DNA of 64,000 bases. Source: Bilabrum cf. latius. Its lineage: Eukaryota. Made by a program: the position numbers and the translations under genes. Positions 7,604-34,356 of this stretch are shown piece by piece (within the stretch, counting starts at the first letter, position 1; every line of letters begins with the position of its first letter). The stretch lies in NCBI GenBank assembly GCA_965178125.1, contig OZ237759.1:806001-870000 (forward strand). The letters run 5' to 3'. The notes beneath the pieces were generated by a model. That model ran no database searches. It saw only the letters and a program-made list of their open reading frames with translations, and had not been told where the DNA came from.

Positions 7604-7611
7604 AATATATT

Positions 7612-12098: not shown

Positions 12099-12117
12099 CC
12101 ACTATATATATAGGTAA

Positions 12118-12624
12118 ATGAAAAACACAATTTGGAAGTTTTTAAATGAATACTTTGATGTCTTTAGTTTAATACTTAAAATACGAGACGAAAACCCTAG
12201 TGATGTCATAAGTACTATAATAGCAATGTATGAAGAGAGTGAAATAGAAGATCCAAAAGAGATCCATAAACATATGAGTGAAATTCGTCATAACTTGGAA
12301 CTTAGATTTAAAACAAAGTATGTTGAAGTATTAAGCACAGATCACGATGACAAAGCAGAAAGTTATCTCCATCTTAATAATATATTATGTAATATTGAAG
12401 GAGAGCAATATGTGGAGGATAGCAAAATCAAGATGTCCGAGAAAAAACAAGTATTTATAAAGACTTACGGTGATATGGATAAAATCAACGAGACTGTCCA
12501 AGAGATGGAACAAGAAGACGAAAAGACTAAAACAGGAGTAGAAAAAGAAATAGATCAAAAGTTAAGTCTATTATGTAATACTTCTAAACAACCAGACAAT
12601 ATTTGTCTAGATTATAAATTGTAA
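12118..12624 (+). CDS. Virophage hypothetical protein (168 aa)
   Basis: Clean ORF, TAA stop, preceded by the CCACTATATATATAGG leader motif. Confidence 0.7.
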   Translation: MKNTIWKFLNEYFDVFSLILKIRDENPSDVISTIIAMYEESEIEDPKEIHKHMSEIRHNLELRFKTKYVEVLSTDHDDKAESYLHLNNILCNIEGEQYVEDSKIKMSEKKQVFIKTYGDMDKINETVQEMEQEDEKTKTGVEKEIDQKLSLLCNTSKQPDNICLDYKL

Positions 12625-12751
12625 TATCAGTATGTATTTTAATTATAAAAATACAAATTGACAGGTTAGATACGACCGCCCCAAATTGCGGAAATATTAT
12701 AGCTATTCAAGATATATTTGTGCAATTCTGGGCGCGTAGGCGTATTGACTT

Positions 12752-13388
12752 TTATATGGAATAGCCAAGGTCTAGAGTCGAACGAAGCTTATCGTGAAGC
12801 TATTCGTAAGTATTATAAATGTAATAGCTAGAAGGGTTCAACTCTTTGATATAAGAGTTACGGTCTTCTAACATAGACTTCTATTTATCTACTTTCTAAT
12901 TCTTTAAAGTCTTCTAGAATAGTGAATTAGATGGAAGACATACAACTATACTTTCTTTTTTAAATAACTCATTAGCTAGACTTAACTCTTTAGTAAAGAA
13001 TATTACTCTCTTCTCGCTACCTTCATTCAACCAGTTATCTTTTACCCATTGAAGGGCTTCTTTACTGGCTTTTCTATTAAGTATATTATAATTACCCCAA
13101 TCACTTTTTAACTTACATTCGTCTAGTTTCATAAGTAATTCGGGCTCCTAGACATATACTCCTAGAGTACTATCTAAATCAACAAGTAAACAGTCTTTAG
13201 AACTAGACCGTAATATTTGACAAGCGGTAGACTTACCACTACCTTCAGGCACACAGATACATATTTTTTTACGTTTATGTAAAGGTTTATCCCATAACCA
13301 CTACCAACAAGACATACCACCAGAGTATGCTAGAGGTAGTAAGACACTTAAACCTCCTACAACGACACTGCTTGAACTGATTCCATCC
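12752..13388 (-). pseudogene. Virophage P-loop NTPase/kinase-like gene (212 aa) with start codon split by the Ngaro insertion
   Basis: ICICVPEGSGKST and LLVDLD; joining 17877 to 13388 rebuilds AAAATG GAT GGA (MDG...) in frame to TAA at 12752. Confidence 0.75.
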
Positions 13389-16300
13389 TAATGCTAACGC
13401 CGAATGGGGTTCGGGGTTGATGTGGCGATGCGTTCGAGACTCGAACACAGGCTCCGGTCTACCAACGCGAGGTTGCAACCGCCAGTGCGACCAGCAGCTT
13501 GCGAGGCATTCCCTCGTCTCCTTCCTTAGGGAAGGGGGCGGGGCAGCGCGGCAGTGGCCGTTCCGGCTCATGCCGTTGTTTTGTTTAGTATTTATGTTCG
13601 GTTTGGTGCTCACACGGGTAGTGCTTAACGCCGTGTCAACTATCGCGCGTGTCCATGTGGGTCCGTTCGGCCTACATCGTGCATCCATCCTCGGCCTACT
13701 TGGCGCTCCAGTGGATCCGAACCAATATTTACTTCGATGTGATCCATCTTTCTCGGCACATCGATGGGACTTCGGTCCGTTGGGCTCGGCTGCTGCTTGC
13801 GCCACGGTCTCCCGGGTGTGTGCTCGCCGATGGCATTTTCGCGCGATCTCTGCGTCCCTCCCTTTCGTACTTGTTCCTACGCACGGCCATGCATGTAGAA
13901 ACATATTCAAATGGTTCGATCTTACGGTTTTCCGACGACCCAGCCTTTCCGTTGGCGAGGCGCGCTCCGCTTTTCCGGTCGCACCTCGAAAGCAACCACT
14001 TTCGGCCAGATCAGCCATCGTACCAGGATACAGCACGATTTGCACCTATCGAGTGACTGATCATTTGAATTGTGCAGGGTGGGCACGTAGTCAGCTTGGA
14101 CTCCATCGTCCTCTGGCTGCCGACGACAGCAGGCTCGGTGAGCCTTCGTCATCGTCCAGACAACCCTGCAGCTCGCACCAGGCGTGCGTGCAGGAGGTCG
14201 AAGCGAGCAGCGCGGTGTGGCGCAGCTCGTAGACGGAGGCCGGCCTGGAGCCTGGTCGGTTGACGCAGCATCAGTGGTGGGCTGGTGCTGTGTCTTGCGC
14301 GGGTGCCGGAGCTTGGCCACGGTGGCCTGCTGCTCCCTGCGCCCCACGCGCAGTTCCTCCCGCTCCGGCGGATGAGTCAGCAGTGGCACGTTGCCACCGG
14401 CTGACGACGACAGCAGGCTCGGTGAGCCTTCGTCATCGTCCAGAAAACCCTGCAGCTCGCACCAGGCGTGCGTGCAGGAGGTCGAAGCGAGCAGCGCGGT
14501 GTGGCGCAGCTCGTAGACGGAGGCCGGCCTGGAGCCTGGTCGGTTGACGCAGCATCAGTGGTGGGCTGGTGCTGTGTCTTTGCGCGGGTGCCGGAGCTTG
14601 GCCACGATGGCCTGCTGCTCCCTGCGCCCCACGCGCAGTTCCTCCCGCTCCGGCGGATGAGTCAGCAGTGGCACGTTGCCACCGGCTGACGACGACAGCA
14701 GGCTCGGTGAGCCTTCGTCATCGTCCAGAAAACCCTGCAGCTCGCACCAGGCGTGCGTGCAGGAGGTCGAAGCGAGCAGCGCGGTGTGGCGCAGCTCGTA
14801 GTCGGAGGCCGGCCTGGAGCCTGGTCGGTTGCCGCAGCATCAGTGGTGGGCTGGTGCTGTGTCTTGCGCGGGTGCCGGAGCCTGGCCACGATGGCCTGCT
14901 GCTCCCTGCGCCCACGCGCAGTTCCTCCCGCTCCGGCGGATGAGTCAGCAGTGGCACGTTGCCACCGGCTGACGACGACAGCAGGCTCGGTGAGCCTTCG
15001 TCATCGTCCAGAAAACCCTGCAGCTCGCACCAGGCGTGCGTGCAGGAGGTCGAAGCGAGCAGCGCGGTGTGGCGCAGCTCGTAGACGGAGGCCGGCCTGG
15101 AGCCTGGTCGGTTGACGCAGCATCAGTGGTGGGCTGGTGCTGTGTCTTGCGCGGGTGCCGGAGCTTGGCCACGATGGCCTGCTGCTCCCTGTGCCCCACG
15201 CGCAGTTCCTCCCGCTCCGGCGGATGAGTCAGCAGTGGCGCGTTGCCACCGGCTGACGACGACAGCAGGCTCGGTGAGCCTTCGTCATCGTCCAGAAAAC
15301 CCTGCAGCTCGCACCAGGCGTGCGTGCAGGAGGTCGAAGCGAGCAGCGCGGTGTGGCGCAGCTCGTAGACGGAGGCCGGCCTGGAGCCTGGTCGGTTGCC
15401 GCAGCATCAGTGGTGGGCTGGTGCTGTGTCTTGCGCGGGTGCCGGAGCTGGGCCACGATGGCCTGCTGCTCCCTGCGCCCCACGCGCAGTTCCTCCCGCT
15501 CCGGCGGATGAGTCAGCAGTGGCACGTTGCCACCGGCTGACGACGACAGCAGGCTCGATGAGCCTTCGTCATCGTCCAGAAAACCCTGCAGCTCGCACCA
15601 GGCGTGCGTGCAGGAGGTCGAAGCGAGCAGCGCGGTGTGGCGCAGCTCGTAGACGGAGGCCGGCCTGGAGCCTGGTCGGTTGCCGCAGCATCAGTGGTGG
15701 GCTGGTGCTGTGTCTTGCGCGGGTGCCGGAGCCTGGCCACGATGGCCTGCTGCTCCCTGCGCCCCACGCGCAGTTCTCCCGCTCCGGCGGATGAGTCAGC
15801 AGGGGCACGTTGCCACCGACTGACGACGACAGCAGGCTCGGTGAGCCTTCGTCATCGTCCAGAAAACCCTGCAGCTCGCACCAGGCGTGCGTGCAGGAGG
15901 TCGAAGCGAGCAGCGCGGTGTGGCGCAGCTCGTAGACGGAGGCCGGCCTGGAGCCTGGTCGGTTGACGCAGCATCAGTGGTGGGCTGGTGCTGTGTCTTT
16001 GCGCGGGTGCCGGAGCTTGGCCACGATGGCCTGCTGCTCCCTGCGCCCCACGCGCAGTTCCTCCCGCTCCGGCGGATGAGTCAGCAGTGGCACGTTGCCA
16101 CCGGCTGACGACGACAGCAGGCTCGGTGAGCCTTCGTCATCGTCCAGAAAACCCTGCAGCTCGCACCAGGCGTGCGTGCAGGAGGTTGAAGCGAGCAGCG
16201 CGGTGTGGCGCAGCTCGTAGACGGAGGCCGGCCTGGAGCCTGGTCGGTTGACGCAGCATCAGTGGTGGGCTGGTGCTGTGTCTTTGCGCGGGTGCCGGAG

Positions 16301-17876
16301 CTTGGCCACGATGGCCTGCTGCTCCCTGCGCCCCACGCGCAGTTCCTCCCGCTCCGGCGGATGAGTCAGCAGTGGCACGTTGCCACCGGCTGACGACGAC
16401 AGCAGGCTCGGTGAGCCTTCGTCATCGTCCAGAAAACCCTGCAGCTCGCACCAGGCGTGCGTGCAGGAGGTCGAAGCGAGCAGCGCGGTGTGGCGCAGCT
16501 CGTAGACGGAGGCCGGCCTGGAGCCTGGTCGGTTGCCGCAGCATCAGTGGTGGGCTGGTGCTGTGTCTTGCGCGGGTGCCGGAGCTTGGCCACGGTGGCC
16601 TGCTGCTCCCTGCGCCCCACGCGCAGTTCCTCCCGCTCCGGCGGATGAGTCAGCAGTGGCACGTTGCCACCGGCTGACGACGACAGCAGGCTCGGTGAGC
16701 CTTCGTCATCGTCCAGAAAACCCTGCAGCTCGCACCAGGCGTGCATGCAGGAGGTCGAAGCGAGCAGCGCGGTGTGGCGCAGCTCGTAGACGGAGGCCGG
16801 CCTGGAGCCTGGTCGGTTGACGCAGCATCAGTGGTGGGCTGGTGCTGTGTCTTTGCGCGGGTGCCGGAGCCTGGCCACGATGGCCTGCTGCTCCCTGCGC
16901 CCACGCGCAGTTCTCCCGCTCCGGCGGATGAGTCAGCAGTGGCACGTTGCCATTGACTGACGCCCCCTCGTCAGGCTTGCTCCCTACATCCAGTAGTTTG
17001 GAGCACCCTGATTTCCCGCTTTGCGGATGAGTCACTGCGGGTATATTCTCCGGCAGCTGACGATCTCTTGGGCCACATGGTTCCTCGCCCAGGAACAGGC
17101 ATGTAGACACAGTGGTAGCCACTCCACTGGCCTACTTGCAGGTTCCCAATCGACTGGTTCTTCCACGGATGTCGCCGTACGTACCTCCTTTGGCACAACC
17201 CGACTGCATAGTCGATGAGTTGTGTCAACGGACTCAACGCCGGCGCGGTTTCGTCCCTGACCTACGGTCGTCGACTCGACTACCGCTATCATCGACTGTT
17301 TCCACACGTCCTACAGATGGTCCCGACAACCAGTCAACTTCAATGATCAAGGCATGGCGATGTAAGACTTGGCTGATAGTGGAGCGGACGCGCAACCGAC
17401 GGTTCTGGTGCTTTCCAACCGACGTCGGCGCGCGGTCTGCTCAGATTGGCCATGCTTTGCCCATGTCTTGATTGAACTGGAGACGAAGTGTGTCGAGTAA
17501 GCATCGTTGCATCATAATGCTAACGCCGAATGGGGTTCGGGGTTGATGTGGCGATGCGTTCGAGACTCGAACACAGGCTCCGGTCTACCAACGCGAGGTT
17601 GCAACCGCCAGTGCGACCAGCAGCTTGCGAGGCATTCCCTCGTCTCCTTCCTTAGGGAAGGGGGCGGGGCAGCGCGGCAGTGGCCGTTCCGGCTCATGCC
17701 GTTGTTTTGTCCCACCCTCCTCTCCCTGGTTTGGCTGATAGTGGAGCGGACGCGCAACCGACGGTTCTGGTGCTTTCCAACCGACGTCGGCGCGCGGTCT
17801 GCTCAGATTGGCCATGCTTTGCCCATGTCTTGATTGAACTGGAGACGAAGTGTGTCGAGTAAGCATCGTTGCATCA
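13389..17876 (+). mobile_element. Non-autonomous Ngaro-type (tyrosine-recombinase retrotransposon) element nested in the virophage
   Basis: GC-rich island with split direct repeats A1 (13389-13584) ... B1 (17369-17514) A2 (17515-17710), 20-bp spacer, B2 (17731-17876); no TSD; no recognisable RT, RNase H or recombinase ORF. Confidence 0.88.
14121..16952 (+). repeat. Ten near-identical tandem repeats of about 284 bp
   Basis: GACGACAGCAGGCTCGGTGAGCC recurs every 283-285 bp. Confidence 0.95.
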
Positions 17877-17921
17877 ATTTTATTATATTAATAAAAAAGA
17901 TATTTCTATAATTAAACTCAA

Positions 17922-18644
17922 TTATCCTGTTAAGAAAATACAAGGTACGACTTTATACTCTACTCCATTAGCATCAGTAGAAGTACCACTTGAAAAGTCT
18001 TCATCTACTAGAGCTTTTGCTACAATAGTCTAATCAACAGAGACTGGTTGAGGATTAGGCGCATAGACATATCCACTATCAGAGCTATTAATTAAGTAAT
18101 CACCCGCACTTACATCTCCTCCATTTTTATTTACTTTCACAGCTCCATCACCTAAAGATGCCACAAGTACTTTACCATCATCATGGTGTTCTCCTACATA
18201 TACTCCAAAAGGTGGTGAATGTTGAGATGCTTGACTTACGACATATTCATTAGTTGTTGGTCCTTTATTAACTACACTATCAAGAGTAACCACTGACCCA
18301 ATACCAGCTGGTAAACTAGAAGCAACATCACTACAAGATGCAACATGTGTACCGGTAAATGATAAGAAGTTGGTTGCTGTCATAGTACTGGTTTGAGTGC
18401 CATCACCTGCGACATTGATTGAGATAGATGCACCTGCTGATGCTGAGTTTTTACCTATTCTCCATGTGAAAGACTTAGCATCTTCATTAGTACCACTCAT
18501 AATATATGGTAGTGATTGACCATTGAAGTTAAGTCCAAAGTTAGCGGCTCCATCAAAGCCTTCTGCTTTAATTGATTCTACTTCAATAGACTTACTCTTT
18601 AATTCATATTCATTTTTGTTTAAGAGATTGTATATTCCTGCCAT
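17922..18644 (-). CDS. Virophage fibre/spike-like protein with putative intramolecular-chaperone (peptidase G2-like) C-terminus (240 aa)
   Basis: SFTGTH...VASLGDGAVKV...NGGDVSAGDYLINS...GY...[TAG]TIVAKAL...VPCIF, a pattern recalled from viral fibre C-termini; TAA at 17922. Confidence 0.6.
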
Positions 18645-18887
18645 TACTTATAATATATTAGCTAGACTAGATATTTTTTTTTTAAATTACGAGATTTTAA
18701 AAAGTTAGTAGTATAAGATATAGTATAATACTAGCGCCCCAAATTGCGATAATATATTAGGATATTAAGATATATTTCCGCAATTCTGGGCGCGTAGGCG
18801 TATTGATTTTTATAATTTAGTCATTTTTAATATAGCCACCTCTTACAATGTAATATTTTTAAATTAAAATATTATAGTATATACCAT

Positions 18888-20330
18888 TTAAAGACTTCTT
18901 AATCTTGAATCTAACCAAGATATTAGAGTATCAAGTCTCTTATTAAGACCTGAACCTTCACCAGTCTTACTTTCACTTGCTCCACTAGATGATTGACCTT
19001 GTGCTTCTTGTTCTTGTTCTTCCCGTTCTTGTGCTGCTCGTGCTGCTCTTGTTCTTGCTTCTTGACCTTTACCAAGATCTTCACCTGCATCGCTTGCTAC
19101 AAATTCTCCATCTGGTTGTCTTTCTAATAGTGTCCCTTCTGTCTCATCATCTAAAGGTTCATTACCTCTTGCTATCTATTCAGCAGCTTCATTCATTACA
19201 TCACTTAATGCGGCTTCTCTTCGTAAGTCTGGATCTTTTTCCTTAGCTCGTCTAAGTCTTTCTTTAAGTGGAGTTCCTGACGGTTCTGCACGACTAAATG
19301 GGTTTGGTTGTCTTTTTCTTAGTGATAATTGTCTTTCAATATCTTTCTTTGCGTCATCAAACTTGATTCTATTTAAATTTACAAATCTAGTTTTACTGTC
19401 AAGTCCCGATTGTCTTCCAGTCTTAATATCTTGAAATAAGCTCTATAAATCATAATACTACATATCATCTATTGGCACACCATCATATTCATCACCTAAT
19501 AGTGCTTTAAGTCTATCTTTTAGTACTGGTGCTTTAGATGTGGCTTTTGTTTTATAAATATCATTTATTGCTTCCATTCTTTTATTAAGTACATCTCTTT
19601 TTAGTTTAACTCGATCAGTTTGGCTTCGTAATCGTTCCAAAGCATAGCCTTTTGACTTTTTATCTCCTAATCTTTCTAATAGAGGTACTATTTGTGTTCC
19701 TTTTGCTCTTTGTCTAACTTTTACAAGTCTTGATGCCATTGAATTAAGTTGAGCCTTAGAGAGACCATTTAAAGTTGAATCACTTACACCTCTCTCTTTA
19801 AGAAACTTCTTCAACTAGTCTACTGTTAAGTCATTCTCTAAGTCTTTGACATCTTTAGGTAAATTGTCTATCTCTTCTGCTTCAATAAATAAGTTATTTA
19901 ATGCGTCGTTAAGTTTTGACTCAGCTTTACCTTTTTGAAATAGAGTATTAGATGAGTTCATATATGGAATATTCTATATCATCTTAGCAATAGCTTCAGC
20001 ATCTTCATCAAGTAGTTCATTATCTTTAGCTAGTCTTACAACTTGATCTATATCTGCTACTTTATACTTTTTACCTTTCTTACTGTTATCTTTAACTCTT
20101 TTTAAAGTCCTTTTCATAAGATTTGCTATTCTTTTTAATTTTCTCTTTTCTTCTAATGGCATAAAGTCCTCTTCTAATTGAATCTTTTGTTTTCGTTTAG
20201 CTTCTCCTATAGCTGCTCTTATGGCTCTCTCTTCGTTTCTTACCTTTCGTCTTGCTTGACTTGTAGGGGCTCTACTTTCCACAAGTCCATCGAGTAAGTC
20301 TTCCAATACTGCTGTTCTTTTTTTAGACAT
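18888..20330 (-). CDS. Virophage charged protein with SAP/HeH-like motif (480 aa)
   Basis: Track fragments share one frame joined by TAG; LTVD[TAG]LKKFLKERGV resembles the SAP helix LTVxQLKxxLKxRG. Confidence 0.7.
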
Positions 20331-20369
20331 CGTATAATTATATTATGATAATAGATAATATTATTAAAT

Positions 20370-20813
20370 TTACATACCATTTTCTTTTAATATTTTACTT
20401 GCTTCTCCTAGACTTACGCCATACTTCTTCATTACCGCACTCACTAATTTACCTCTTGCTTTAGCTTTTGGATTAGGTTTCCTCTTACGCTTAGCCTTTC
20501 CAAGTCCTACAGTCTTAAGTGCAGCATCAAGAGGGACACCAACTTCAGGGGCTACAAACTTAAGACCTGTTCGTATTGCCTTTCCTACATTACTTTTAAT
20601 ACCTTTTTTAATTGTTCGCCCTACTTTCTTGAATTTACGACCTACTTTTTTAAAAAAGCGTCCAACTTTTGAACCACCTTGAACACCATTCATTTGATAG
20701 TCTTCAAATAATTCAAGTAGTTTTTGCTTAAATTCGTCTTTTAAATTGTTGACTTTGGCATTAGAGGGTGATTTACCTAGTTGCTATAGTCTTTGTCTTA
20801 TGAAATCGTCCAT
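20370..20813 (-). CDS. Very basic core-like protein with di-glycine motif (147 aa)
   Basis: ATG 20813; VQGG followed by SKVGRFFKKVGRKFKKVGRTIKKG; K/R-rich tail. Confidence 0.75.
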
Positions 20814-20847
20814 TATAATAAAGAACTATAATATTTCTTATTAATAT

Positions 20848-21666
20848 ATGGTTAAATTAACAAAGTAGTAGCTAAAGTATTATTCACGATTTGATAATAA
20901 GATATTCAAGTCTTTTAAAATAAATAGAAGTGATATTTATTTAAATGGTTCATATTCATTTACTCATAATATGCTTTCACTTTGGGCTGGAGACATAGAC
21001 CTATACTCTCCCGTTAAATTGTCTGATGTCAATAGTGTTATAAATGAATTAAAGACCTTAAGAGGTAGTAGATTAATACATATTTATAACGTTGAATATG
21101 ATGATAATGGCGTCTCTTTAGATACATTTCTTGATACTAATAGACCTAAAATATTAAAATCTTTAAAATAGTAGAATAATCCTATGATATTCGTTGAAAG
21201 TTGGGTCTATACTGGATATATTGAAGAGGTTAGTATATTATATGATATTGGAGGTAAGATATTGAAAATGAAGCCTCAACAAGTAGCTGATAGGATGATA
21301 GATGACATAAAAGACTTACAAAAAGAACGAAAATATTTCAAGATATTAAAAAGACTAGATGTAATTTACGACGAATTAGGGCAAAAGAAGAAACAGGAAG
21401 AGATTGAACAACTTATAAAGAATCCCGATGTAGGCTTTCTTTACTTGACTATTACAAGATTAAAAAGTTTATTACTTCCAACAGTTCCATTTAAATTAAA
21501 AAATAGAGTTATTGATAGACTTAAGAATGATGTACGTAAATTAGGACTTATTAAACCAGTTTATCAATACTTTAATACGTTCAATAGTAAAGATGTAAGT
21601 ATTATAATTAAATATTTAGAAGACTAGCTCAATAAAAGGGTCGTTAAATTAGTTTCACATAATTGA
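20848..21666 (+). CDS. Pol-beta-superfamily nucleotidyltransferase-like protein (272 aa)
   Basis: IYLNGSY...WAGDIDLY fits the hG[GS]-x(n)-DhD motif; frame continuous through two TAG-TAG pairs to TGA 21666. Confidence 0.6.
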
Positions 21667-21860
21667 ATACACCTAAACGCCCAGAATTGCAGACATAATT
21701 CTCTTGATACTTATATATTTCCGCAATTTGGGGCGCCCTATATTGTGAGATTTTCATTAGATTGACCCGAAAATGTAAAACCTCTAACAGCCTACGCGCC
21801 CAGAATTGCACAAATATATCTTAAATAGCTATAATATTACCGCAATTTGGGGCGGTCGTC

Positions 21861-22382
21861 TCACCAGTCACTATAAAATAGCTCGTCAATGTCTTCTTCG
21901 TTAAGTTTATTAACTTTTTCTGTCGGATGGAGGGGATTATCTGGTCGTATGTCATGTAAATAGCACTTAAGTCTGAAAAATTTTAGATATTCATAAATTA
22001 ACTACATTTGAAAAAAGTCTTTTTTAAATAACCTTTCCCACTCAACGGATTGTTTAAATTGTTCTATACATTCATTTATTTTCATTGAATTAGCATAGTC
22101 AAAGTTGAATGTTTTTAAGTGATCAAAAGAAGACGATACATATCCGTTATCATTTAACGTAAAGTCCATATCATAATAGTACTTTTTACTGCAATTGATA
22201 ATACATTCTCTATACTTACGAGCAATTAGAAGACAAGTTATATAATTAGTATAGCAATCTACTCTATCAGTTGTCATCATATTACGCTACTCTTCTGCTT
22301 TCTTATAGTACTAATTAACTTTACATGAGTACTTATAAAATGATTTAATATATCTTTTTGAAATTAGAAGTTTGTGATCCAT
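21861..22382 (-). CDS. Virophage hypothetical protein (173 aa)
   Basis: ATG 22382 to TGA 21861 with three in-frame TAG. Confidence 0.65.
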
Positions 22383-22527
22383 AATTCTATATATTTATAT
22401 GATATTTTAATCATATTCTTAAGACTGTGCACTCTAAAATGAATATTTGAAATGGCTACTTCTCACAATATACCTTTTAAACCCACTTATTATTAGAAAA
22501 ATAATAAATATTAACATATAGTATATA

Positions 22528-23595
22528 ATGTCATTATCATACGATGAAATACCAAATAGTCATTTAGTTGCTTTAAGAGAATACAAGCACAAGAAGAGGA
22601 ACAAAAGCGTCTTTTTTAGTGAAGATGTAGGGGAAAAAGTCATAACTCCAGAAGATATAAGTGATGATTTACTTGAAGAGTACTATGGAAAGAGAGCAAT
22701 TAAATATGAGAAGAATAAAAAAGCATTACGTGAAGAGATGTGTAAGTTAGTGAATGGAAATAAAAAACTAGTTAGAAAGACTAACGAGTTAAGAATAGAT
22801 GATAAGAGTTAGTTTGAAATAGTCCCATTCTTTGATGATGAGACCAAAAGACAAATACACTATTTAAGTGGTTAGGCTGGTGCTGGTAAGTCTTATATTG
22901 CTAAGTCTTTACTCAAGTATTATCATATGTTCATTCCAAAGAAGAGGGTTTTAGTCATTACACCAGTACAGGAAACAAATCCAACTTATTTAAAATATGG
23001 TAATTTTATTGATATTGATAAATTAGTAGCAGTAGATAGAAACGATAGTTATGATGACTTAATGAGGAAATATAAAGAAGAAAAGATATTCTTTAGGTAG
23101 GAAAAGAAGTCATTAGAACCTCATGAATTAATTAAAAGAGAGTAAGAGATAGAAAGAATGAAACCAACAAGTAAAGACAAGACTAAGGCATCATTTACCA
23201 CTACTCCATTGTATGAAGAATGGGCAAAATAGGGTCCTTCTGTGGTGGTATTTGATGATTATGAAGCCTTAAACGGGGATAAAAAGTAGAGGGCGTTATT
23301 CTTAATTAAGCGTATAGGTGAAGTTGGAAGACATAGCTCAACAAATATGATAGTTATAAGTCATTTAACGAATGATTATGCGAATACTAGGTCAATAGTC
23401 ATGGAAAGTCATAATATTATTTTATTTAAGAGAAATCTATGGAAATTTAGCAAATATTTAATGAAAGCATATTTAGGATTTGATGCAAGTCTTATAAATC
23501 GTGTTTATAAATTGTTTGGAGAAGGTAATAGATGGCTATGTATTAATAAGACGTATAATTTTATCACTTGTCCTAAATAGATGTTCGTATATTAA
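22528..23595 (+). CDS. FtsK-HerA/A32-type packaging ATPase; one internal TAA at 23143-23145
   Basis: Walker A YLSG[TAG]AGAGKS, Walker B VVVFDDYE, arginine finger GRH, ISH motif; first gene of the morphogenesis block. Confidence 0.88.
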
Positions 23596-23614
23596 TTTTC
23601 TTAGTATTAAGTAT

Positions 23615-24163
23615 ATGGATATAACCACTGCATTAAGTCCTGAAGAGGTACAAAGACTATACTTTACATTTACAAAGTAGCATATACCAGTTATAATGTA
23701 TGAAGAAATAAGTGATACTAATAACATCAGACAATTTCTAGATGAAAATCCTTTATTTGTCCTTTATTATCCTAACTTAGTAGAAGGAGCAACAATGAGC
23801 GGTCATTATACTGCGGTCATATTTAATAAATCAAAGAATACTCTTTATTTTTGGGATAGTTATGGTCAATTACCTGATACTCATATTCCAGTCGTAGGAG
23901 GAGTCATAGACCCATAGAAGCTATATGATAGAAGTAGTCTTCTAATAGATCACGTATTAGATGCTGGTATTAATGTTGACTATTCAAATCAAAAGAATCA
24001 ATTAATATCAAATAACTCTGCCACATGCGGTCGGTGGAGTGTGCTCAGACTTCTCTTTCATAATTTAACGAATGATTAGTTTAATAGTCAATTAAAGAAG
24101 GCTTTTAAAAAGTATGGAGGAGGACTAGATAATGATGAACTTATTACTTTGATAATTAGTTAA
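23615..24163 (+). CDS. Adenain-like cysteine maturation protease (182 aa)
   Basis: SGHYTAV, YFWDSYG, Q...SATCGRW catalytic His/Asp/Gln/Cys order. Confidence 0.93.
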
Positions 24164-24523
24164 TATGACATATACCATAAATTTTTAGATATTGAAAATT
24201 GATATCTATAAGGTGGCCATATTAAAAAGACTAAAATATAAAAATGAATACGGGTACGCGCCCAGAATTGCGGAAATATATCTTAATATCCTAATATATT
24301 ATCGCAATTTGGGGCGCTGGTATTATACTATATCTTAAGATACTAAATTTTTAAAATTTCGGAATATTGGATTTTTTCAATGAGTCAAATAATTAATAAA
24401 AACTTTTTTAAAAAGTCATTACGGGTAAGCGCCCAGAATTGCGGAAATATATCTTAAATAGCTATAATATTACCGCAATTTGGGGCATTAGACAAGACTT
24501 ATTTTCTTGATAAATGTTATAGA

Positions 24524-25450
24524 ATGGTAGAGATTCAAGAACCAGATATCTTTTATATTAACTCATAGGATACTATAACATCTATTAATACTAATAGACC
24601 AGTATCAATACATGAACAGCGTCAAGGTAATATCTTGACAAATTCACAAAACTACTTATTATCACTTGACCGATGGACTCTTAAATGTCGTATTCCTTTA
24701 TTTGTAGCAAGTAAAGAAGTAAAGAATAGCGATAATTAGTCAATTTATAAGATGTCGTTTGTGAAGAAGAGTGATGGAACTACTTACACTCGTAATATTG
24801 TCTTAACTAAGCCGTTATATTATAGTCTTAAGACCCTATCTAATGAATTTAATAATACTCTTAGTGATTTATGTGGAGATGCTAGTATTCCAACTGATAG
24901 TATAGTATTTGAATATCACGGTAAGACTAAAACATTTAGTTTCACCCGTTTAGCCGCTTTTACAAGTGCGTGGACTTTAAGTTTTAACTTTCCTTTATTC
25001 TCTATCTTTGAGACATTTGAATATGACGATGAAGGTAAAGACATCAAGAGTGATACTTATATAAATCTATTAGATGGATATAATGAATAGAGTGCTTCTA
25101 CCTTAGATTAGTTTCCTACTATGGAGTATATTCAAATTATTAGTCCATCACTTCCAATACTTCCAGAATTTACGCCATCATATAAAAGTACATCTAGTAC
25201 AGAGATACAAAGTGAAAATATCTTAAGTGATTTCAAGATAGACAATACAACAGGAACGAGTTTTATTAAAATAAACTTTAGTAGTGGAGGAAATCATAGA
25301 TGGCAATAGTTCTATAGATCAGCATTTAATAGTTATAGTATAGTACCGTATTTTAGAGATACTTTTGGAAACTTATACGAAATACCCTTTACTTTTGGAC
25401 AAGGACTTAATATAAAAGCTCTATTTAAAAGTAAAAAGTTAATAACTTAA
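24524..25450 (+). CDS. Minor capsid (penton) protein (308 aa)
   Basis: EQRQGNILTNSQNYLLSLDRWTL...IPLF, SLPILPEF, NILSDF, IKALF; lies between protease and major capsid gene. Confidence 0.85.
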
Positions 25451-25492
25451 AGTAAAAAATAAATAAATATCTTTAGTCTTAATATATTTATA

Positions 25493-27379
25493 ATGTCTGA
25501 TATGGATAATGTACCTGTAGCAGCACAAAGCAAAGTCGTAGATGACGTCTCAGAACTACCAGTAACTCAAATAGCTGACGAAAAACTCAACTTTGTGGGT
25601 GATAGTCAAGCTATTACTCTAGGAACTACCCTTGGATACTCTTCCAAGTTTCAAAATCACTACGAACCAGATGGTGGTAACTCTAGCGCAACTAATGCAT
25701 TTAGAAGTAATTATACTTTCGTAGTGCCATCAAATCAAGGAATGACTGACAGTAATCCCCGTCTAAGAGTTTCATTTGACGTATACATCTATGATAGTTA
25801 GAACAATGGAGCAGTAGCTCAAACTGATATCGTCAATAAGGTAGCCCCTTCTACATTTATGGTAAATTCAATGATCACAAGTTCCACAGTTAAAATGGGA
25901 GACTTATCTCGTAGTTCATCACCTTATCAATTAGTCAATTTAATAGCTAGAAGTCTTGACCGTGCCACTCTAGCACAAATAAGTCCTGTCTTTTAGGCTG
26001 ATAACACTTGGGAATTTAATACTGCCGCAAATGGTCTTGCTAAGTCTGTCCTTCAATGGGGTGTAAATGATGATAGTATTATGGAAGCTCGCGGTCCTGG
26101 TAAGAATTACCGCGCAACACTTGAAAAAGTGGATGCTAATACTCCAATACCTAATAATAATGTAACACCAACTCAAGACTATGTCAAATTACATATTGAA
26201 ATCTCTGAAGCACTTCTTGCACGTCCTTTCCAATATATGATGGGTGGTAATGCTAGACCTTTTGTTGATCATCCACAATTAAATGTTAATTTACAAATGA
26301 GAAATAACTTAATTGATAAGATGTTTAATACTTCAAGTGATTGGAATGGAGACTATGCTTTTGCTTTATCCGATTGCTAGATCCATTTTGATGTCTTTAC
26401 TTATAATACTCATCTTAACTTCTTGAAGAAAGTACCTAAACAAATATTCTACAACTCTGTTGACTTTGAACTACATGAAGAGCCTAAACTTGATAATCCT
26501 ATCACTACTAAAGGTGTCCATACTTTTAATAATTATCAACTTTAGACTTGCCCTTCTTGGTTTGCTGTGTGCTTAGTTGATTCTCAATATGGAGAAGCTA
26601 GTGGTACACCTCATAGAACACTTGCCATTAACAATATTAAAGTACAACTTAGGTCTTAGGGTTCTATTTTAGGAGAACTTACACAAGACGATATCTTTAG
26701 ACTTAGTGAAAGAAATGGATCAAATAGTGAGTATGCTTCTTTTACTAACTTAGATGTAACTGTAGGAGGTGCTTCTAAAGTATACGGATCTAATGGCTGG
26801 CTCTTATTTAGACTTAGTGATTTAAATACTCCTGAAACTATTCAAAGCAACAGTGCTGACCCTATTAGTATTCGTGTTCAAGTAGCCTATGACGAACCCC
26901 CAACCGCTGCTATGTCTCAAGGATATAAAGCTCAATTATTCTGTGCCTATGACAAGATTATCGTGAATACTAGAGGTGCCGCTATTGAATGGCGTGAAGA
27001 TAGTGCTTCTGTTGACCCTGAGAAAGTGGCTAAACCTTCTAATTATACATTTTCTAATATGAACTACTCTAAGAACGTATTAGGTGGAAGACGTCGTAAA
27101 GTGATGCAATTCTTTAAGAGAGCCTTTAACAAAGCTAAAGACTTAGGACGTAAAGTGGTAGACTTTGGAAAGAAAGCTAAAGCTAAATTTGATAAAGTGA
27201 AACCAGCTCTTCGTAAAGCAAGGCAAGCAGTAAGTGAATACTTACCCGATGAAGTGAATGACTTAGCTGAACGTGTTGGAGCAGGTCTTTTAACTAGTGG
27301 TGGAAGTCTTTTGACCAGTGGAGGTAAGAAATTAACTAAGGCTCAACTTATGAAACTTAGAAAGTAGCTCAATATGTGA
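25493..27379 (+). CDS. Virophage major capsid protein (628 aa)
   Basis: Single frame with TAG sense; ISEALLARPF, NNYQL[TAG]TCP, LAINNIKVQL...SILGELTQDDIFRLSERNG resemble virophage MCP motifs; basic C-terminal extension after VLGG. Confidence 0.92.
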
Positions 27380-27566
27380 GTCGTAAATTATTAATTAATA
27401 TTTAAAAGTTATAAATATTGACTAAATTTAAAAACTCAATACGGGTACGAGCCCAGAATTGCGAAAATATATCTTGAATAGCTATAATATTACCGCAATT
27501 TGGGGCGGTCATACCTTAAGACTAGTTTAAATATTACGCCAAAAAATATCCACTATATATATAGTT

Positions 27567-27989
27567 ATGGCAGCAGTATCACCGTGTGAAGACTTACTTT
27601 ATATGGAGTATTCATTCTTATTCTTACCACATAGAGAAGACCCAACACTTAAATCTCAAAAGGTTTACTTAGATGATGAACTTGAAGGAGATCCTGAAGA
27701 CATTGTAATAGATAAAGATTAGATATAGGTAAATAATAGAGGTCATATAAAGACATATGTAAGTGAAGGAGGCTTTACAAAGTTAAAGGTAGGATAGATA
27801 ATTGAAGAGATGGAGCAAGAGGTGCGTAATTAGAATGGTATTGATTATGATTGTATTTTTTATCATAAAGTTGAACACGACACCAGCACAGATATTTATA
27901 AAGTAGTATGGGGGTGGTATCCAGCAGACTTTCCAACAAATGGATGCGACCCTGCTATCTTGTATAAGAAACCCCCTAATATGGATTAA
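27567..27989 (+). CDS. Virophage cassette ORF 1, hypothetical (140 aa)
   Basis: ATG directly after the shared leader CGCCAAAAAATATCCACTATATATATAGT; four TAG; TAA stop. Confidence 0.7.
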
Positions 27990-27994
27990 TTATT

Positions 27995-28304
27995 AAAAAA
28001 ATTCTTTGAGCTAGTAATTATACCGATGGTTTGACTACTTGGCGAAGTCATTCGTAAGTCATTGTTGTAGCGGAGCCAGAACGTGAACTGATGCACCTGA
28101 AACCCTATTAAGTCTTACGACTAAGTCTGCTACAACCACTTACGACTACTTCTACAGTATCCAAACTCCCTTCAAAGACTTGCAAGACGTGTGCTTTGTC
28201 ATAAGTATGACTTACAGAACGACTCACGGCGATGTCAGTGGTGGGAATCGAACCCACGACCTTGACTTTGTGAAACAATCACGATATCACTAGACCAAGA
28301 CCAC
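27995..28304 (-). ncRNA. Candidate Pol III-transcribed, tRNA-headed structured RNA (about 310 nt)
   Basis: A box TGGTCTAGTG (28297-28288), T-arm GTGGG-TTCGATT-CCCAC with B box (28254-28244), downstream stems, no T4 run before a T7 terminator at 28001-27995. Confidence 0.65.
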
Positions 28305-28476
28305 AACGCACCAAGAGGTTAAAAAAAAAATATTCAAATAAATTTTAAAATTCAATACGCCTAAACGCCCAGAATTGCAGAAATATATCTTAAATAGCTA
28401 TAATATTACCGCAATTTCGGGCGGTCATATCCTAAGTTTGATTATTCCGCCAAAAATATCTACTATATATATAGTA

Positions 28477-28929
28477 ATGTCAGATAATTTAGACTTCCAT
28501 TTAATTAAACAAGTTGATGATATATGTTTCACTGGTGTTGAATTCTATTAGGGATATCGAATAACTCAAGGTGAACAGCTTAAACAACTTAATTACTTAT
28601 TCGTAGATAACAAAAAGGATATTGATAAGTTTGTATCTATTTCATTTGTAAAAGAAGCAGATAAGGATGAGTTTGAGCTATTACTGGTTAATGAAAATGG
28701 AAAATTAGAAGACGACACAGATATATTTAAAACAGAGAGAGACCTTATTAAGTACTTGAAAGAAATAGATTTAAACAAAAAAGACTATTCAAATGATGAT
28801 GTTATGTTGTCAACATTTCCAATTATAATGATGAGCATACGAGATCTAGTAATCAATAGCAATATTGGTTCAATTGAGAGTATCAAAAAAGGTGATACAG
28901 ATCAATTTGACCACTTGAAAGATAACTAA
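28477..28929 (+). CDS. Virophage cassette ORF 2, hypothetical (150 aa)
   Basis: Same palindrome and leader as cassettes 1 and 3; one TAG; TAA stop. Confidence 0.7.
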
Positions 28930-29066
28930 ATAAATTCAATACACGTACGCGCCCAGAATTGCGGAAATATATCTTAAATAGCTATAATATTACCGCAATT
29001 TCGGGCGGTCATATCTTAAGACTAGTTTATTACTTTCGCCAAAAAATATCCACTATATATATAGTA

Positions 29067-29417
29067 ATGTCAGATAAAGAAGATATCAAAATTGAACTAT
29101 CTCAAAATTTTATAGATGAATGTCTTGTTAAAGGTGTAGGTGTCGATGATGTAGTCAGTAGTATAGGTAAAAGTATTGAGAATCACTTTGATAAATATGT
29201 ATGGATGAAACCAAAAGACAAAGGTGATGGTTATCGTTAGAATGTCTTTAGTTTTAAATTCGACAATATTATCAAGAAACTCGAAAGTACATTGGAACAG
29301 TTAGAATATGAAGAGCAAGTGAAACACGTCTAGGAGCTGATGTATCGTGTTGAAAGAAGTGAATGTGAAAGGAAGAAGAGAGAAGAAAAAATTAAAAAGA
29401 CAAAAAGAGACCACTAA
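29067..29417 (+). CDS. Virophage cassette ORF 3, hypothetical (116 aa)
   Basis: Same palindrome and leader; two TAG; TAA stop. Confidence 0.7.
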
Positions 29418-29479
29418 GTCATTTTATATAAGGTATGTATTATTAAGTCTTATTAAGTTTTTTATTAATAAGTCATAAT

Positions 29480-32278
29480 TTAATTTTGTTGTTCTAGTGG
29501 ATCATTATCCTCATCAACAAATAAAGCGGGGTCTAAGTCAACCTCTATCTCTTCATCGGGTAATTGAACCTCTTCATCATCAACAAATATATCTACTTCA
29601 CGAGTCTTTTTCTTGTTAGACCAGATATATTCCATCTCATCAATAATATCCTAATTAAATTCTACATCATAGTTAATTTTCTTTTTCTTACAAGTCATAA
29701 ATATGTCTTTCCCAAACATTGATTTATATACTTTAAGTATTTCGTAATAAAGACCTTTATCAGTGGATAAGTCAACTTTACTTCTTCTTTGGCAGTCATA
29801 CACTGTCCTATATTCATCTGTTAAGTCTTGATCTAATACTTTCTTTTTGATATTATAATCAAGATTAGTTCTTTTAAGACCTAAAGTATCAATCATCTTA
29901 TTAAGTAAGACTAATTTTCTAGAACTAGACTTAGCATTGATAATATCAAACTCGCCTTTATTAATTGCTTTCACAAGTAAGTGCTTATCATCTTGTCTAA
30001 AGAATTTATTGAAATTAAATAAATTAGATAACTTACCTTTATTAATAAAGTACTCTTTGTATTTGTCAATATCACCTTCATCTAAGTCTAAATATTTATT
30101 AATCTTCTTGACATTAAGACAATTAATATCAAAATTTTCAAGTTGTTTTTCTTTAATGGTATCTTTGATTTCTTTATCCTTACATCTGGTGATCTTAACA
30201 GATAAATCATAAGACACGTCATAACCGGTATCAATTAACTACTTGATCATATGTAATTTAGGGTTTGTCTTATAACAATCTACCTTGTAAAGATAATTAC
30301 GATATAGTTTCTTGAATATGATTTTAACTTTGCTCATTTCTTCTTCTACTTTGTCTTCTACTTCTACCTCGTTGAAGTCGGGATATGTATCACTGACAAA
30401 TTTAACTAATTCTTCGTAGTCTTTTAAAGAGGTAGCCATAAAAGATTTAACTTGTGAAAGACTTTCATATGTGCTAGATCGTCCTTTCTAGTAATCAAAA
30501 AATATAGTGATATGTGATGGGTTTCTACATCTGTTAAGCTATTGAACCATTTGGGGAGGTGTGATAGTATGACCTTTGAAATAACCAAAGACTGGTCTAG
30601 TCATAGTGCTATCTATCCCGTAAATGACTTTAGGTGAGAAGATAATGATATCAAACAAATCCATATCATAGTCTTTGTCTTCGCTTTCTGCTGTAAGTAT
30701 TAAGATTTTATTTAATTTCTTATCTTTCTCGTTATCTATAATTTTAAGACTAATTAACTCATTGATTATATCAGCTTTTGTCTTACTATCACTAGCAAGC
30801 ATAAACTTCTTGTGTTTCATTAACTCATCTCTAAAAGTCTGTTCGTCATTAACAAATACAGTTTTGGTGCCCTTGAACCTGTTTCTGTCATTCCTAATAT
30901 ATTGATAATCTAATTTTAATAATTCTAAGAAATATAGAGCATCTTGAGATAAGTCAGCATCTGCTACTATGAACTACTTACAAGTGGTAAGAGCACGAAT
31001 AAGAGTAATGAAACTCATTGGTCGCCTACCATATAAAGTCGTAGAACTTAAACAGTGTTCTAAGATACTATTAAACTCATCTAAAAAGACAATATAATCC
31101 TTAAAGTTATAATTGCTAAGACTAACAATACTTTCAGGAGTAATAACAATACTATCACCCTATTTGTATTTATGGTCTTGATAGAATTTAGTTGATTTTG
31201 GAAGACTACGCATCTATTGCTTACCTAATAAAATACGACTAACAACTGATAAAAAGCTGTCATCTACTCTATTAAATAAATCATTAGCAGCAGTTGTCTT
31301 TCCAGAACCAGCCCCCGACTTAACGGCATAGTTGATACCTTTCTTAAAGAATTTAATATAACGACCTTTGTCGTCAGCAGTCAAATATCTACGGTCAATC
31401 TTCTAATTGACTTTCTTGACTACTTTATTCTTGAATATCTTGTATCGATAATATAGGCTAAGTCGTTTCTTTTCACTATCTAACTAGTTAAAGAACCATT
31501 CAACACATTGAAAAGTGGAATTTTGTAATAATCGAGTAAAAATTATCTTGTTCTTAGTCGACTAATAGCTTTCTACGTCTTGTTTGCTCCATTCATCAAA
31601 TATATCATATACCTTATTACCATCTACTGGATTTAAGTATTTAGCGATATAACTTGTAGCTCTACAAACTAGATGCCAGTTATATGAATTAGAATAATAC
31701 TCTTTACCTAATTGATATAAGTATTGTTTGTATTCTTCGGGTTTAATCATATAACGGTAGTCTTCAGCTGTAAGTTGTGGTGAATAGATATTTTGTAGTA
31801 TGAACATCTTGACGTCAGTTGGTATTCTTTTCACGGATGTCTTTTGTATTAGTTCGTATTTCTTACCGTTGATAGAGCTAGGAGGACACATGATAAAGCT
31901 ATCATTTGTGATCACATCTATATGTTCTTTTCTATTTACTGACCTCTTACTAAACTCTTCTTCATACTTAAAATACAAATGATATCCATTGGGAGACTTG
32001 ACAGTGTAAGTATTCATCTCTTGAATAAACTTATCAACACTACCATATTCCGCAATAAACTTACCATTTTGAAATTCAGTTTTATTTTTCTCTTTTTCAC
32101 AATCTAAGTCAAGGACAAAGAAACCTGCACGTCTTCCAGTAAGTAATCCAACATTAAGATTTGACTTTCTGGTGATAAGTTTAGTAGATTCCAAATTCTA
32201 CCAAGACTTAATAAGTGGTTGTTTAGAGTTGTGAGCTATTGAGAAATAAACAGGGTTAGATATGTGTTCGGTCGTCAT
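29480..32278 (-). CDS. Primase-polymerase + PriCT-like + UL9/origin-binding-type SF2 helicase fusion (932 aa)
   Basis: KQPLIKSW, NVGLLTG, FVLDLD, TVKSPNGYHLYF (prim-pol); FDEWSK; KSGAGSGKTT, VSRILL, VFLDEFNS, ADADL, FSPKVIYGID, Q[TAG]LNRCR; four track ORFs share one frame. Confidence 0.88.
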
Positions 32279-32308
32279 TCTAGTATATACTATACTAAAG
32301 ATAATTTT

Positions 32309-32521
32309 TTAAGTCATTTTCTAGACGCACTATTTTGGCTTAAAGGATTGAGATGGATTTTCGCGCACAACTAGAGTATTTTTAAATTTTTCAATTTCTG
32401 CTGGGGATTTCCCGATTAGTAAATAACTTATAGTCTCTTGAAACTCTATTGGTAAGTCTTGTAATTGATGTATTGGTTTATTGATAACTTGATTATTTGA
32501 TTTGGTATCTATTAAATCCAT
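32309..32521 (-). CDS. Virophage small hypothetical protein (70 aa)
   Basis: Track ORF extended through two TAG to TAA 32309. Confidence 0.5.
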
Positions 32522-32553
32522 TATTAATAATACTATAATAATAGAATATATTT

Positions 32554-32763
32554 TTAAGTCTTATTTAATCCTTCTGTATCTGGTTCATCCTTAACCTGTT
32601 TTCTCTTCTAATAGTACCCCTTCCATTTCTCTTGATTCTTTTGGTAATATTTCTATTTAGCTTTTTTAATAGCTTCTTTCTTTTTGGTCTCCTATTCCTT
32701 GAGTCTTTGATAATCTTCCATAATGTCTTGAACCTATTTTAATACATCTTTAATATCTGGCAT
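32554..32763 (-). CDS. Virophage small basic coiled-coil protein (69 aa)
   Basis: MPDIKDVLK[TAG]VQD...KKAK[TAG]KYYQKNQEKWKGYY; TAA stop. Confidence 0.55.
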
Positions 32764-32823
32764 TACTATAGTAATATACTAGATAAATCTTTAAGTTTTT
32801 AAAACTAGAAAATGACTTAAAAT

Positions 32824-34356
32824 AAGTGGTATGAGTTAGTGAATATGTAAAATTGAATACGGGTGAGCGCCCAGAATTGCAAACATAATTTTCTTGATAC
32901 TTATATATTTCCGCAATTTGGGGCGGTCATATCTGGAGATACAATTTGGGGCGGTCATATCTGGAGATACAATTTGGGGCGGTCATATTTATTATTAGTT
33001 ATTTTAAAATATCTCGTCAAGTGGTTAAGTCTTTTTGTGATATCCCGTTAAGTGGTCAATAAAATGAACGGTAAGTCAAAAAAATTAATCAAAATAAAGA
33101 AGTAGTTGATTATTAATTATTGAAGACACCTAAGCGCCCAGAATTGCGGACATAATTTCTAGAATACTTATATATTTCCGCAATTTCGGGCCGTCATTTC
33201 TGGACATTTAATATAGCACATACTAGAAATATCTTTATTACAAAATTACACCTCTATAAGATAACTATGTCAAAATTAACAAAATATAAAACTCAATACA
33301 CCTACGCGCCCAGAATTGCGACAATATATCTTAATATCCTAATATATTACCGCAATTTCGGGCGCTAGTATTATACTATACCATATTTAATTATCCTATA
33401 TTTTCCATTTAATCTAGTGATTAATCATTTCAAAGTAATACACTTGACATAAACCAGTTCATTGAGTCATTTTAAAGTCATCGTCAAAACATTTATCATT
33501 TTTAAGTTATCCCGCTTTGTATTCCTTTATATCATATACTCAAACAAAGGACTTTAACATATTTAAAGAATTATGAAAAATAAAAATCAATACACCTACG
33601 CGCCCAGAATTGCAGAAATATATCTTGAATAGCTATAATATTACCGCAATTTCGGGCGATAGATAAAAGAATGTATTTTTAAGGGGATACCCTTATATTT
33701 GAAGTTTTGAAGAGATGACATATAAAAGACTTTATAAAGTGATTAATATCTCCTTCTAGTTATATTTAAATATTCAATTATTTAAGTATAGATTGACAAG
33801 TAATAAAAAAAGAGATAAATTAAGTTGATATATTAGTTTAGTTTTATTTATTAATTTAAATTTTTCATTGGAAGTATTAAAAAGACTTTAATACTTCTGT
33901 CAATCTCTTTAAGTATTTATTTAGTTATTTTCTAAAGTGGTAAATGTCAATTGATACTTAAAACCAAATCATAATATAAAACTCAATACACCTACGCGCC
34001 CAGAATTGCGAACATATATTCTTAAATGACTATATATTTCCGCAATTTCGGGCGGGCATATCCTAAGACTTAGGCTAGGGATTCACTCAACAGATTAAGT
34101 AAAGTAAAGGTCTAACAGATAGACATTAACGGCGCGAAGGTATTAAATTAGGTAGATATATGAATAAATAGCTATTAAATTATTATGTTCAAGTGAAGGA
34201 CATTATGAAGGACTACGGCTTAAGATGTTGTGAAGTGGTTAATATTGACCTCTTATGTTATCCGCCAAAATGTGTGTAGTTTTTATATAAGTAAACTCTA
34301 TTTCTACTATATAGTAGAAATAGAGTTATCATAACTCCACATTTTGGCGGATAACA
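32824..34356 (-). repeat. Right terminal inverted repeat (about 1.53 kb)
   Basis: Reverse complement of the left TIR, with fewer 93-bp units and an extra short GGTCATATCTGGAGATACAATTTGGGGC unit. Confidence 0.92.
34256..34356. repeat. Right terminal hairpin (101 bp), identical in direct orientation to 5511-5611
   Basis: Base-for-base identity with 5511-5611 on the plus strand, including the asymmetric segments. Confidence 0.95.

Follow-up and report, generated by a model that had tools for sequence, protein, structure and literature searches.

Within an integrated virophage whose genes are tightly packed, a block of 316 nucleotides carries no open reading frame, and the question that this locus raises is what the block is and what, if anything, is made from it. 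The earlier note had read it as a tRNA-headed, Pol III-type RNA gene comparable to the adenovirus VA RNAs and the Epstein-Barr virus EBERs. We analyzed the block (here called the module) within the window, that is, the whole 64,000-nt stretch of DNA that was studied, and compared it with contigs from public sequencing runs.

The virophage, its genetic code and its gene cassettes

The window consists of GC-rich DNA (55 to 68% GC) that encloses an island of approximately 30% GC. Under the standard genetic code, the island has no open reading frame (ORF) longer than 235 codons and the virophage resembles gene debris, while a virophage gene set appears when TAG is read as a sense codon. The carrier of the module is an integrated virophage (5593..34274) with perfect terminal inverted repeats of 1305 nt each (5593-6897 and 32970-34274), broken at ~13.3-17.9 kb by a GC-rich insert. 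Its TAG-as-sense ORFs encode a major capsid protein (MCP) with a V20 C-terminal domain (25493-27376), an rve integrase with a chromodomain (9532-11184) and, on the minus strand, a Prim-Pol helicase (29480-32278); the protease and the packaging ATPase gave weaker matches in the same ORF set. The terminal inverted repeats, MCP, integrase and helicase surround the module, and its location inside a virophage, as the earlier note had proposed, is correct.

Several other features of the carrier were observed. The GC-rich insert (13381-17876) has split direct repeats in a Ngaro-like order (A1, 13381-13584; B1, 17369-17514; A2, 17507-17710; B2, 17731-17876), and its interior lacks ORFs and holds a tandem array of 10 units of ~284 bp each (14011-16867); a nonautonomous DIRS/Ngaro-type element is one possible identity. 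A perfect direct repeat of 101 nt (5511-5611 and 34256-34356) overlaps the outer ends of the 1305-nt inverted repeats. Duplications made by an rve integrase are expected to span a few base pairs; this repeat is far longer and may belong to the repeats of the host or result from an unusual integration. The packaging ATPase frame is broken by a TAA at 23143-23145 into ORFs 22528-23145 and 23158-23595; all four runs compared had two other letters at 23143-23144, giving a sense codon in the other copies, and the virophage copy in the window may be defective. Next to the right end of the virophage are two host paralogues that encode FG-GAP-repeat membrane proteins (34366-36663 and 37364-38896), and the open frame of the first begins within the boundary between AT-rich and GC-rich DNA.

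The reading of TAG as sense was examined in both virophage and host genes. Twenty virophage ORFs (5,687 codons) contained TAG 80 times in frame and were terminated solely by TAA (16 ORFs) and TGA (4 ORFs). The codon CAG was depleted in frame 0 only, with 8 observed versus 38.8 expected, compared with 87 versus 91.1 in frame 1. This frame-specific depletion reflects codon usage and not mutation, so decay of CAG to TAG by context-driven mutation was ruled out as the source of the in-frame TAGs. In the host, the Pkinase match of a MAP-kinase-like gene (51266-53092, plus strand) was unbroken over residues 48-356 and spanned two TAGs, and in the FG-GAP paralogues (e.g., 37364-38896, plus strand) TAG aligned with Q twice (KSHQKI and CSQG) and with E twice. 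At the TAG positions of the capsid protein, near relatives had Q in 8 of 12 alignment cells. TAG is a sense codon in the virophage and in the GC-rich host alike, and from these alignments it probably specifies Gln. Reassignment of UAG only is rare outside ciliates (PMC5304391), and our literature search found no report of a virophage that uses it.

The virophage genes are packed as cassettes, in which an intergenic hairpin repeat (~80-150 nt, 15 copies) is followed by an ORF, and in the other genes the stop codon lies ~0-50 nt from the next intergenic repeat. Copies of the repeat also lie at, for example, 27427-27506 and 28927-29006 and share a conserved hairpin, GCCCAGAATTGCG ... CGCAATTTGGGGC. 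At the ORFs starting at 12118, 27567, 28477 and 29067, the word (A/G)(T/A)C(C/T)ACTATATATATAG(T/G) stands between the repeat and the ATG, a few bases ahead of the latter. The hairpin and this promoter-like word are probably a terminator hairpin and a helper-virus promoter. All four occurrences of the promoter-like word in the window were on the plus strand ahead of ORFs, including the one at 27548-27565 ahead of ORF 27567-27989. Contig breakpoints in other virophage copies coincided with the intergenic repeats. The module is the sole ORF-free extra block in these tight cassettes. It fills the spacer 27995-28335, downstream of the stop codon of ORF 27567-27989 and ahead of the following intergenic repeat (~28339-28343), and is separated from ORF 28477-28929 by a plus-strand copy of the repeat at 28343..28422, one of the 15.

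A tRNA-derived head and a body of imperfect stems

The module (28005..28320, minus strand, 44% GC) consists of a tRNA-derived head and a structured body. All six reading frames contained stop codons, even with TAG as sense, and a 56-amino-acid ORF within the module had no homologue in a protein homology search. The head (28233..28304, minus strand, 72 nt) is arranged in canonical tRNA register with degenerate acceptor, D and anticodon stems. Its first letters, GTGGTCT (28304-28298), are followed by the A-box-like word TGGTCTAGTGA (28287..28297), the first ten letters of which are those of the D region in the real tRNAs aligned. A perfect T arm, GTGGGTTCGATTCCCAC (GTGGG-TTCGATT-CCCAC, 28241..28257), has a 5-bp stem and a 7-nt loop that carries the conserved GTTCGANTC, as in canonical tRNAs, and it contains the B-box word GGTTCGATTCC (28254-28244). 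The head ends in a 3' acceptor-like strand with discriminator, CACTGACA (28233..28240). The 17-nt T arm was the sole match in the 64-kb window at up to 3 mismatches (1 found versus 0.10 expected). The body (28002..28232, minus strand, 231 nt) has long but imperfect stems in which GTAAGT/ACTTAC-type words recur. In it, the arms TCGTAAGT (28145-28138) and GTTGTAGC (28136-28129) lie opposite GCTACAAC (28071-28064) and ACTTACGA (28059-28052), also on the minus strand, and a small hairpin, AGTC-GTAA-GACT, is located at 28111..28122. A run of seven T's on the minus strand (T7, 28001-27995; on the plus strand, A7 and then TTC at 27995..28004) follows as a candidate Pol III terminator.

The description in the earlier note agreed with these results. 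The A box on the minus strand, the exact T arm and the AGTC-GTAA-GACT hairpin were all found, and the body of about 230 nt with a long interrupted stem has its facing arms at 28145-28129 and 28071-28052. The module is also richer in GC than its surroundings, as described (0.443 for 28005-28320 versus 0.343 and 0.285 in the flanking ORF regions; the island as a whole is at 0.313), and it contains no T4 ahead of the T7 (no A4 on the plus strand at 28002-28320). However, the absence of T4 from the minus strand between 28320 and 28002 is weak evidence, because the base composition of the module itself predicts no more than ~2.6 T4 starts.

Comparison with real tRNAs addressed the ancestry of the head. 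A search for the pattern from A box to T arm matched only three IMG/VR contigs, each carrying ordinary tRNA-Gln or tRNA-Pro genes, and the likeness of the head to these genes was limited to the D and T regions. The head and the aligned tRNAs share the D-region word and also the sequence that runs from the variable region across the T arm, and the spacing of A-box word and T stem was 40 nt both in the head and in two tRNA-Pro genes (L002 and L003). These shared words and the equal spacing indicate that the head is tRNA-derived and still in tRNA register. In the same alignment, G19 was replaced in the head.

The feature is a decayed copy of a tRNA and not a tRNA gene, in agreement with the earlier note, which had seen that the acceptor stem does not pair and that a normal tRNA is excluded. 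ARAGORN found no tRNA in the 64-kb window and none in 27500-28800 when introns were allowed or when -ps or -ps90 was set, while ps80 gave three poor calls in the same interval. Rfam gave no match to the module at gathering thresholds, for tRNA or for VA and EBER models; in a permissive search, the best match of the tRNA clan was the tmRNA model, with 20 bits versus a gathering score of 47. Folded alone, the 72-nt head was no more stable than shuffled sequences (z = -0.10, with 84 of 200 shuffles as good), and its minimum free energy (MFE) structure showed the T arm only. SINE heads typically show such a loss of the cloverleaf. A canonical acceptor stem is absent. The only partner of the acceptor-like strand is GTC(T)AGTG (28295-28288), which pairs with CACTGAC if one base is bulged, and this pairing was used by ARAGORN in mitochondrial mode to call a 59-nt, D-armless form with the anticodon tca (28292-28234). 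A permuted or intron-bearing tRNA was rejected, as ARAGORN with introns found none and no 5' acceptor partner was seen on inspection of the body.

Genes transcribed from type-2 Pol III promoters, which include those for tRNAs, VA RNAs, EBERs, TMERs and SINEs, have internal A and B boxes ~30-60 nt apart. The A box (28297-28287) and the B box (28254-28244) of the module are separated by 31 nt, which, as a sequence match, fits this spacing. The first run of at least four T's downstream of the head on the minus strand is the T7, as expected for a type-2 Pol III terminator. None of the four matches to the virophage promoter word in the window faced the minus strand of the module.

Predicted folding of the body was compared with that of shuffled sequences. 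The minus strand of the body had a z-score of -2.32 (5 of 200 shuffles as good) versus -1.60 (11 of 200) for the plus strand; the stretch 28040-28160 had a z-score of -2.13 (8 of 200), and the whole 326-nt stretch had a z-score of -1.81. A 19-nt inverted repeat with 79% complementarity is formed by 28052-28070 and 28127-28145. The predicted folds exceeded those of the shuffles only modestly, and the support that they lend to a structured RNA is weak. The words AAGTC/GACTT occurred 7 times in the module versus 0.7 times in shuffled modules, and alternative pairings compete in the body because its stems are built from the repeated GTAAGT/ACTTAC-type words.

Copies in other sequencing runs and a probable origin by insertion

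The region was present in six runs, stored as contigs, from two organisms and two studies. The copies were compared in the contigs of four public runs (X1, X3, X5 and X6; two organisms, two studies) at a likeness of at least 85%, and copy number was judged at 28076-28100 only, from contig depth, which is a rough measure. At these positions, each of the four runs had one contig. Its depth was 342 or 310 in organism A versus 351-458 for core virophage contigs and 17.1 or 4.75 in organism B versus 18.6-21.9 or 4.3-6.5. Thus, at 28076-28100 the module is at virophage copy number, without extra host copies at 85% likeness or more, which argues against a high-copy host SINE. Many dispersed host copies, which the earlier note had named as the mark of an ordinary SINE, were not seen at 28076-28100, where there was a single contig per run at a depth no higher than that of the core contigs. 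The virophage itself is multicopy and mosaic in the two organisms (17600-35400; X1, X3, X5 and X6), with a contig depth ~5-15 times that of neighboring host-like contigs and with rearrangement joints such as 21858 to 27429 and 24347 to 33980.

The copies differ more in the module than in the neighboring and core genes. A contig of run X5 had 23 differences and 2 gaps in the 377 nt of 28002-28378, and overall the module differs by ~6% between copies versus 0.2-1% for neighboring genes and 0.1-1% for core genes (e.g., 5 of 2376 letters in a capsid contig). This divergence fits either weak constraint or a separate history. Among the differences listed, at least 10 substitutions and 2 indels fall within the 25 nt of 28076..28100, where they give three haplotypes, that of the window, that of organism A and that of organism B. 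Set against the predicted pairs of the body, the listed changes include two that are both-sided and four that break pairs. The both-sided changes are 28094/28085, from G-C to C-G in a hand-drawn 3-bp stem, and 28089/28078, from A-U to G-C in the MFE structure. To the left of the module, loose contig ends and a joint at 27995 gave at least three different neighbors among the copies; therefore, the module behaves as a separate cassette.

Beyond this lineage, no relative was recovered in the collections searched. The MCP peptides and a 29-mer of the T arm had no match in viral contigs, a 31-mer of the body and a 24-mer of the T arm plus acceptor strand had none in metagenome contigs, and tblastn of the MCP against a phage database gave no match. 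The nearest MCPs, with 88% and 86% identity, were on contigs of ~2 kb, the next relatives had at most 32% identity, and a distant MCP (P0004) yielded no confirmed related locus.

The flanks of the module were examined for traces of an insertion. The 24,083-nt island has six plus-strand runs of at least seven A's, and two of them bracket the module; for six runs in 24 kb, we estimate that ~0.4 pairs within 340 nt would be expected by chance, so such a pair would not be rare. On the left, AAAAAAATTC (27995-28004, plus strand; A7 and then TTC) lies where homology breaks in other copies. On the right is an A10 run followed by TATTC (28321..28335, plus strand), the last 10 nt of which, AAAAATATTC (28326-28335), form the right repeat copy. 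The two repeat copies match at 9 of 10 positions, are A-rich and of low complexity, and five extra A's precede the right one. Alignment with paralogous spacers assigned the right copy to the ancestral spacer. With moderate confidence, the 9/10 flanking repeat resembles a target-site duplication from a single insertion, either of a SINE or of a retrocopy, and the five extra A's are reminiscent of a short plus-strand poly(A) tail, in the opposite sense to the tRNA-like head. A 22-nt pattern of the joined flanks, representing the empty site, matched the right flank only, and no allele lacking the module was seen among the joints listed in the contigs of the four runs. There was no second copy in the 35 kb of host DNA within the window and none above virophage depth in the runs, so these data show no SINE family.

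Competing explanations and what they mean for virophages

We consider, with moderate confidence, that the module is a tRNA-derived, SINE-like type-2 Pol III unit that is likely transcribed. The preserved parts of a type-2 promoter, the T7 as the first T run downstream, the location in nuclear DNA and the absence of a virophage promoter for the minus strand point to such a unit. We infer that a tRNA-derived, SINE-like module of ~320 bp was inserted once into an intergenic spacer of the virophage and is now carried by the virophage lineage. Its head keeps both internal boxes in tRNA register, the remainder of the tRNA having decayed, and host Pol III would transcribe the minus strand from the integrated provirophage independently of giant-virus-type promoters. 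Transcription would end at the T7 and yield an RNA of ~300 nt with a T-arm hairpin at its 5' end and a 3' body of ~230 nt with imperfect long stems. By default, we regard the module as a selfish or neutral passenger of the virophage. However, the geometry of the repeat and the extra five A's fits better with retroposition on the plus strand, antisense to the head, than with a minus-strand SINE.

Four kinds of known element resemble the module in part. The TMERs of the murine herpesvirus MHV68 are tRNA-like elements with downstream hairpins, 200-250 nt long, transcribed by Pol III and processed by tRNase Z and Dicer (PMC4838037). They are, like the module, virus-borne; their tRNA-like head does not work as a tRNA, contains an internal Pol III promoter and precedes stem-loops and a T run, within an overall range of 200-320 nt. 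In contrast, TMERs form a cluster of eight and have two clean pre-miRNA hairpins, whereas the module is single copy, has lost the cloverleaf from its head and has a body with a single branched set of imperfect stems; it also has a virophage as carrier and a protist as host. Pol III also transcribes the viral VA RNAs and EBERs, which are ~160-170 nt long and have internal boxes and strong hairpins (PMC4838037). They lack a tRNA-like T arm in tRNA register, have no sequence or Rfam match to the module and bind PKR or La/L22; the likeness is limited to the Pol III type and the hairpins. The comparison made in the earlier note is supported in part: the module has the sequence signals of a Pol III-type unit, but the MHV68 TMERs, with a tRNA-like head and hairpins, are a closer analogue than the VA RNAs and EBERs.

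tRNA-derived SINEs share with the module a tRNA-related head with A and B boxes and a degenerate cloverleaf, a length of ~320 nt, flanking direct repeats and a terminator that possibly comes from the flank. Unlike them, the module showed no dispersed family: the window has one copy, and in four runs its depth was that of the virophage. Its tRNA-sense strand also lacks a clear tail, the run that resembles poly(A) being on the opposite strand. Ngaro retrotransposons nested in the EMALEs of Cafeteria provide a precedent for host retroelements inserted in the intergenic DNA of integrated virophages (PMC8547959), and the GC-rich insert of the present virophage has split direct repeats of the same A1-B1A2B2 type. 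Ngaro elements are ~6 kb long and encode a tyrosine recombinase, whereas the module is 0.3 kb long, noncoding and tRNA-derived. In the article listings searched and in two papers on endogenous virophages, we found no published description of a tRNA-like element in a virophage or polinton-like virus; the word "tRNA" occurs in neither paper, one of them being PMC8547959 (main text). On these sequence comparisons, we file the module as a tRNA-derived Pol III-type element in a new carrier, a virophage.

A possible but rather unlikely alternative is that the module is an adaptive noncoding RNA gene of the virophage, of the TMER or VA type, in which tRNase Z or RNase P would cut off the head of a Pol III transcript. 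It is equally tentative that the body would then be a small-RNA precursor, decoy or guide, with its 25-nt variable segment tracking a giant-virus or host target. The TMER-like order of a tRNA-like element and downstream hairpins (PMC4838037) agrees with such a gene, as do the bulged pairing of GTC(T)AGTG beside the T arm, the retention of the module in nearly all virophage copies of two organisms despite the compact genome, the clustering of the listed differences at 28076-28100, the two candidate both-sided changes and the better z-score of the body on the minus strand than on the plus strand. However, the four other listed changes break predicted pairs, the ~6% divergence fits relaxed constraint or recombination as well as diversifying selection, the head has no cloverleaf fold, and the viral and metagenome contig searches gave no relative outside the lineage. 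Somewhat more doubtful still is the specific proposal of a provirophage Pol III gene that is active without the giant virus, in which the head would serve as promoter and processing handle, as in TMERs, and the body, with its fast-changing 28076-28100, as a small-RNA precursor or guide in the conflict among virophage, giant virus and host. An inert relic that hitchhikes in the virophage and has ceased to be transcribed, whether a tRNA pseudogene or a piece captured from the host or a giant virus, would account for the degenerate acceptor, D and anticodon stems, the replaced G19, the high divergence between copies and the weak structure z-scores. We consider it improbable, as a dead relic would not be expected to keep a perfect B box and T arm and a nearly perfect A box while the rest decayed; it was also retained at virophage copy number in two organisms, and no T4 interrupts it.

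Two further alternatives were weighed. A role of B boxes and TFIIIC in insulation is known from yeast and human work, and the module might be a cis element of this kind at the DNA level, its B box binding TFIIIC and shielding the provirophage from silencing, or its stems might form a structure of the 3' untranslated region or terminator of ORF 27567-27989, transcribed on the plus strand from the promoter at 27548-27565. Read-through from the plus strand is likely, given the position of the module between the stop codon of that ORF and the intergenic hairpin at 28343-28422, and one contig of organism B joins 29092 to 27995, which places the module immediately after a promoter cassette. Yet the plus strand folds no better than shuffles, by the values given above, and the other virophage genes manage without such a block, which makes a cis element very unlikely. 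Least credible, to the point of being scarcely tenable, is a working aberrant tRNA, either a D-armless form with the anticodon UCA or a stop suppressor for the in-frame TAGs. The mitochondrial-mode call and the 80 TAG codons in virophage ORFs would agree with it, but the anticodon called reads TGA, which ends 4 of the 20 ORFs, and not TAG, and both standard ARAGORN and Rfam reject the head. A TAG suppressor in particular was rejected: no CUA anticodon loop can be drawn, and no viral suppressor is needed because the host itself reads TAG as sense.

In the current view, virophages depend on the transcription machinery of their giant virus, and integrated copies stay silent until that virus arrives. 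Even as a passenger, the module would extend nested insertion in virophages from Ngaro retrotransposons to a second type of element, and if the TMER-like alternative were true, no regulatory RNA gene of a virophage would have been known before it. If the SINE-like Pol III unit that we prefer is real, it would give the provirophage a route of expression in uninfected cells, and such a route would bear on how endogenous virophages persist, sense infection and avoid silencing.
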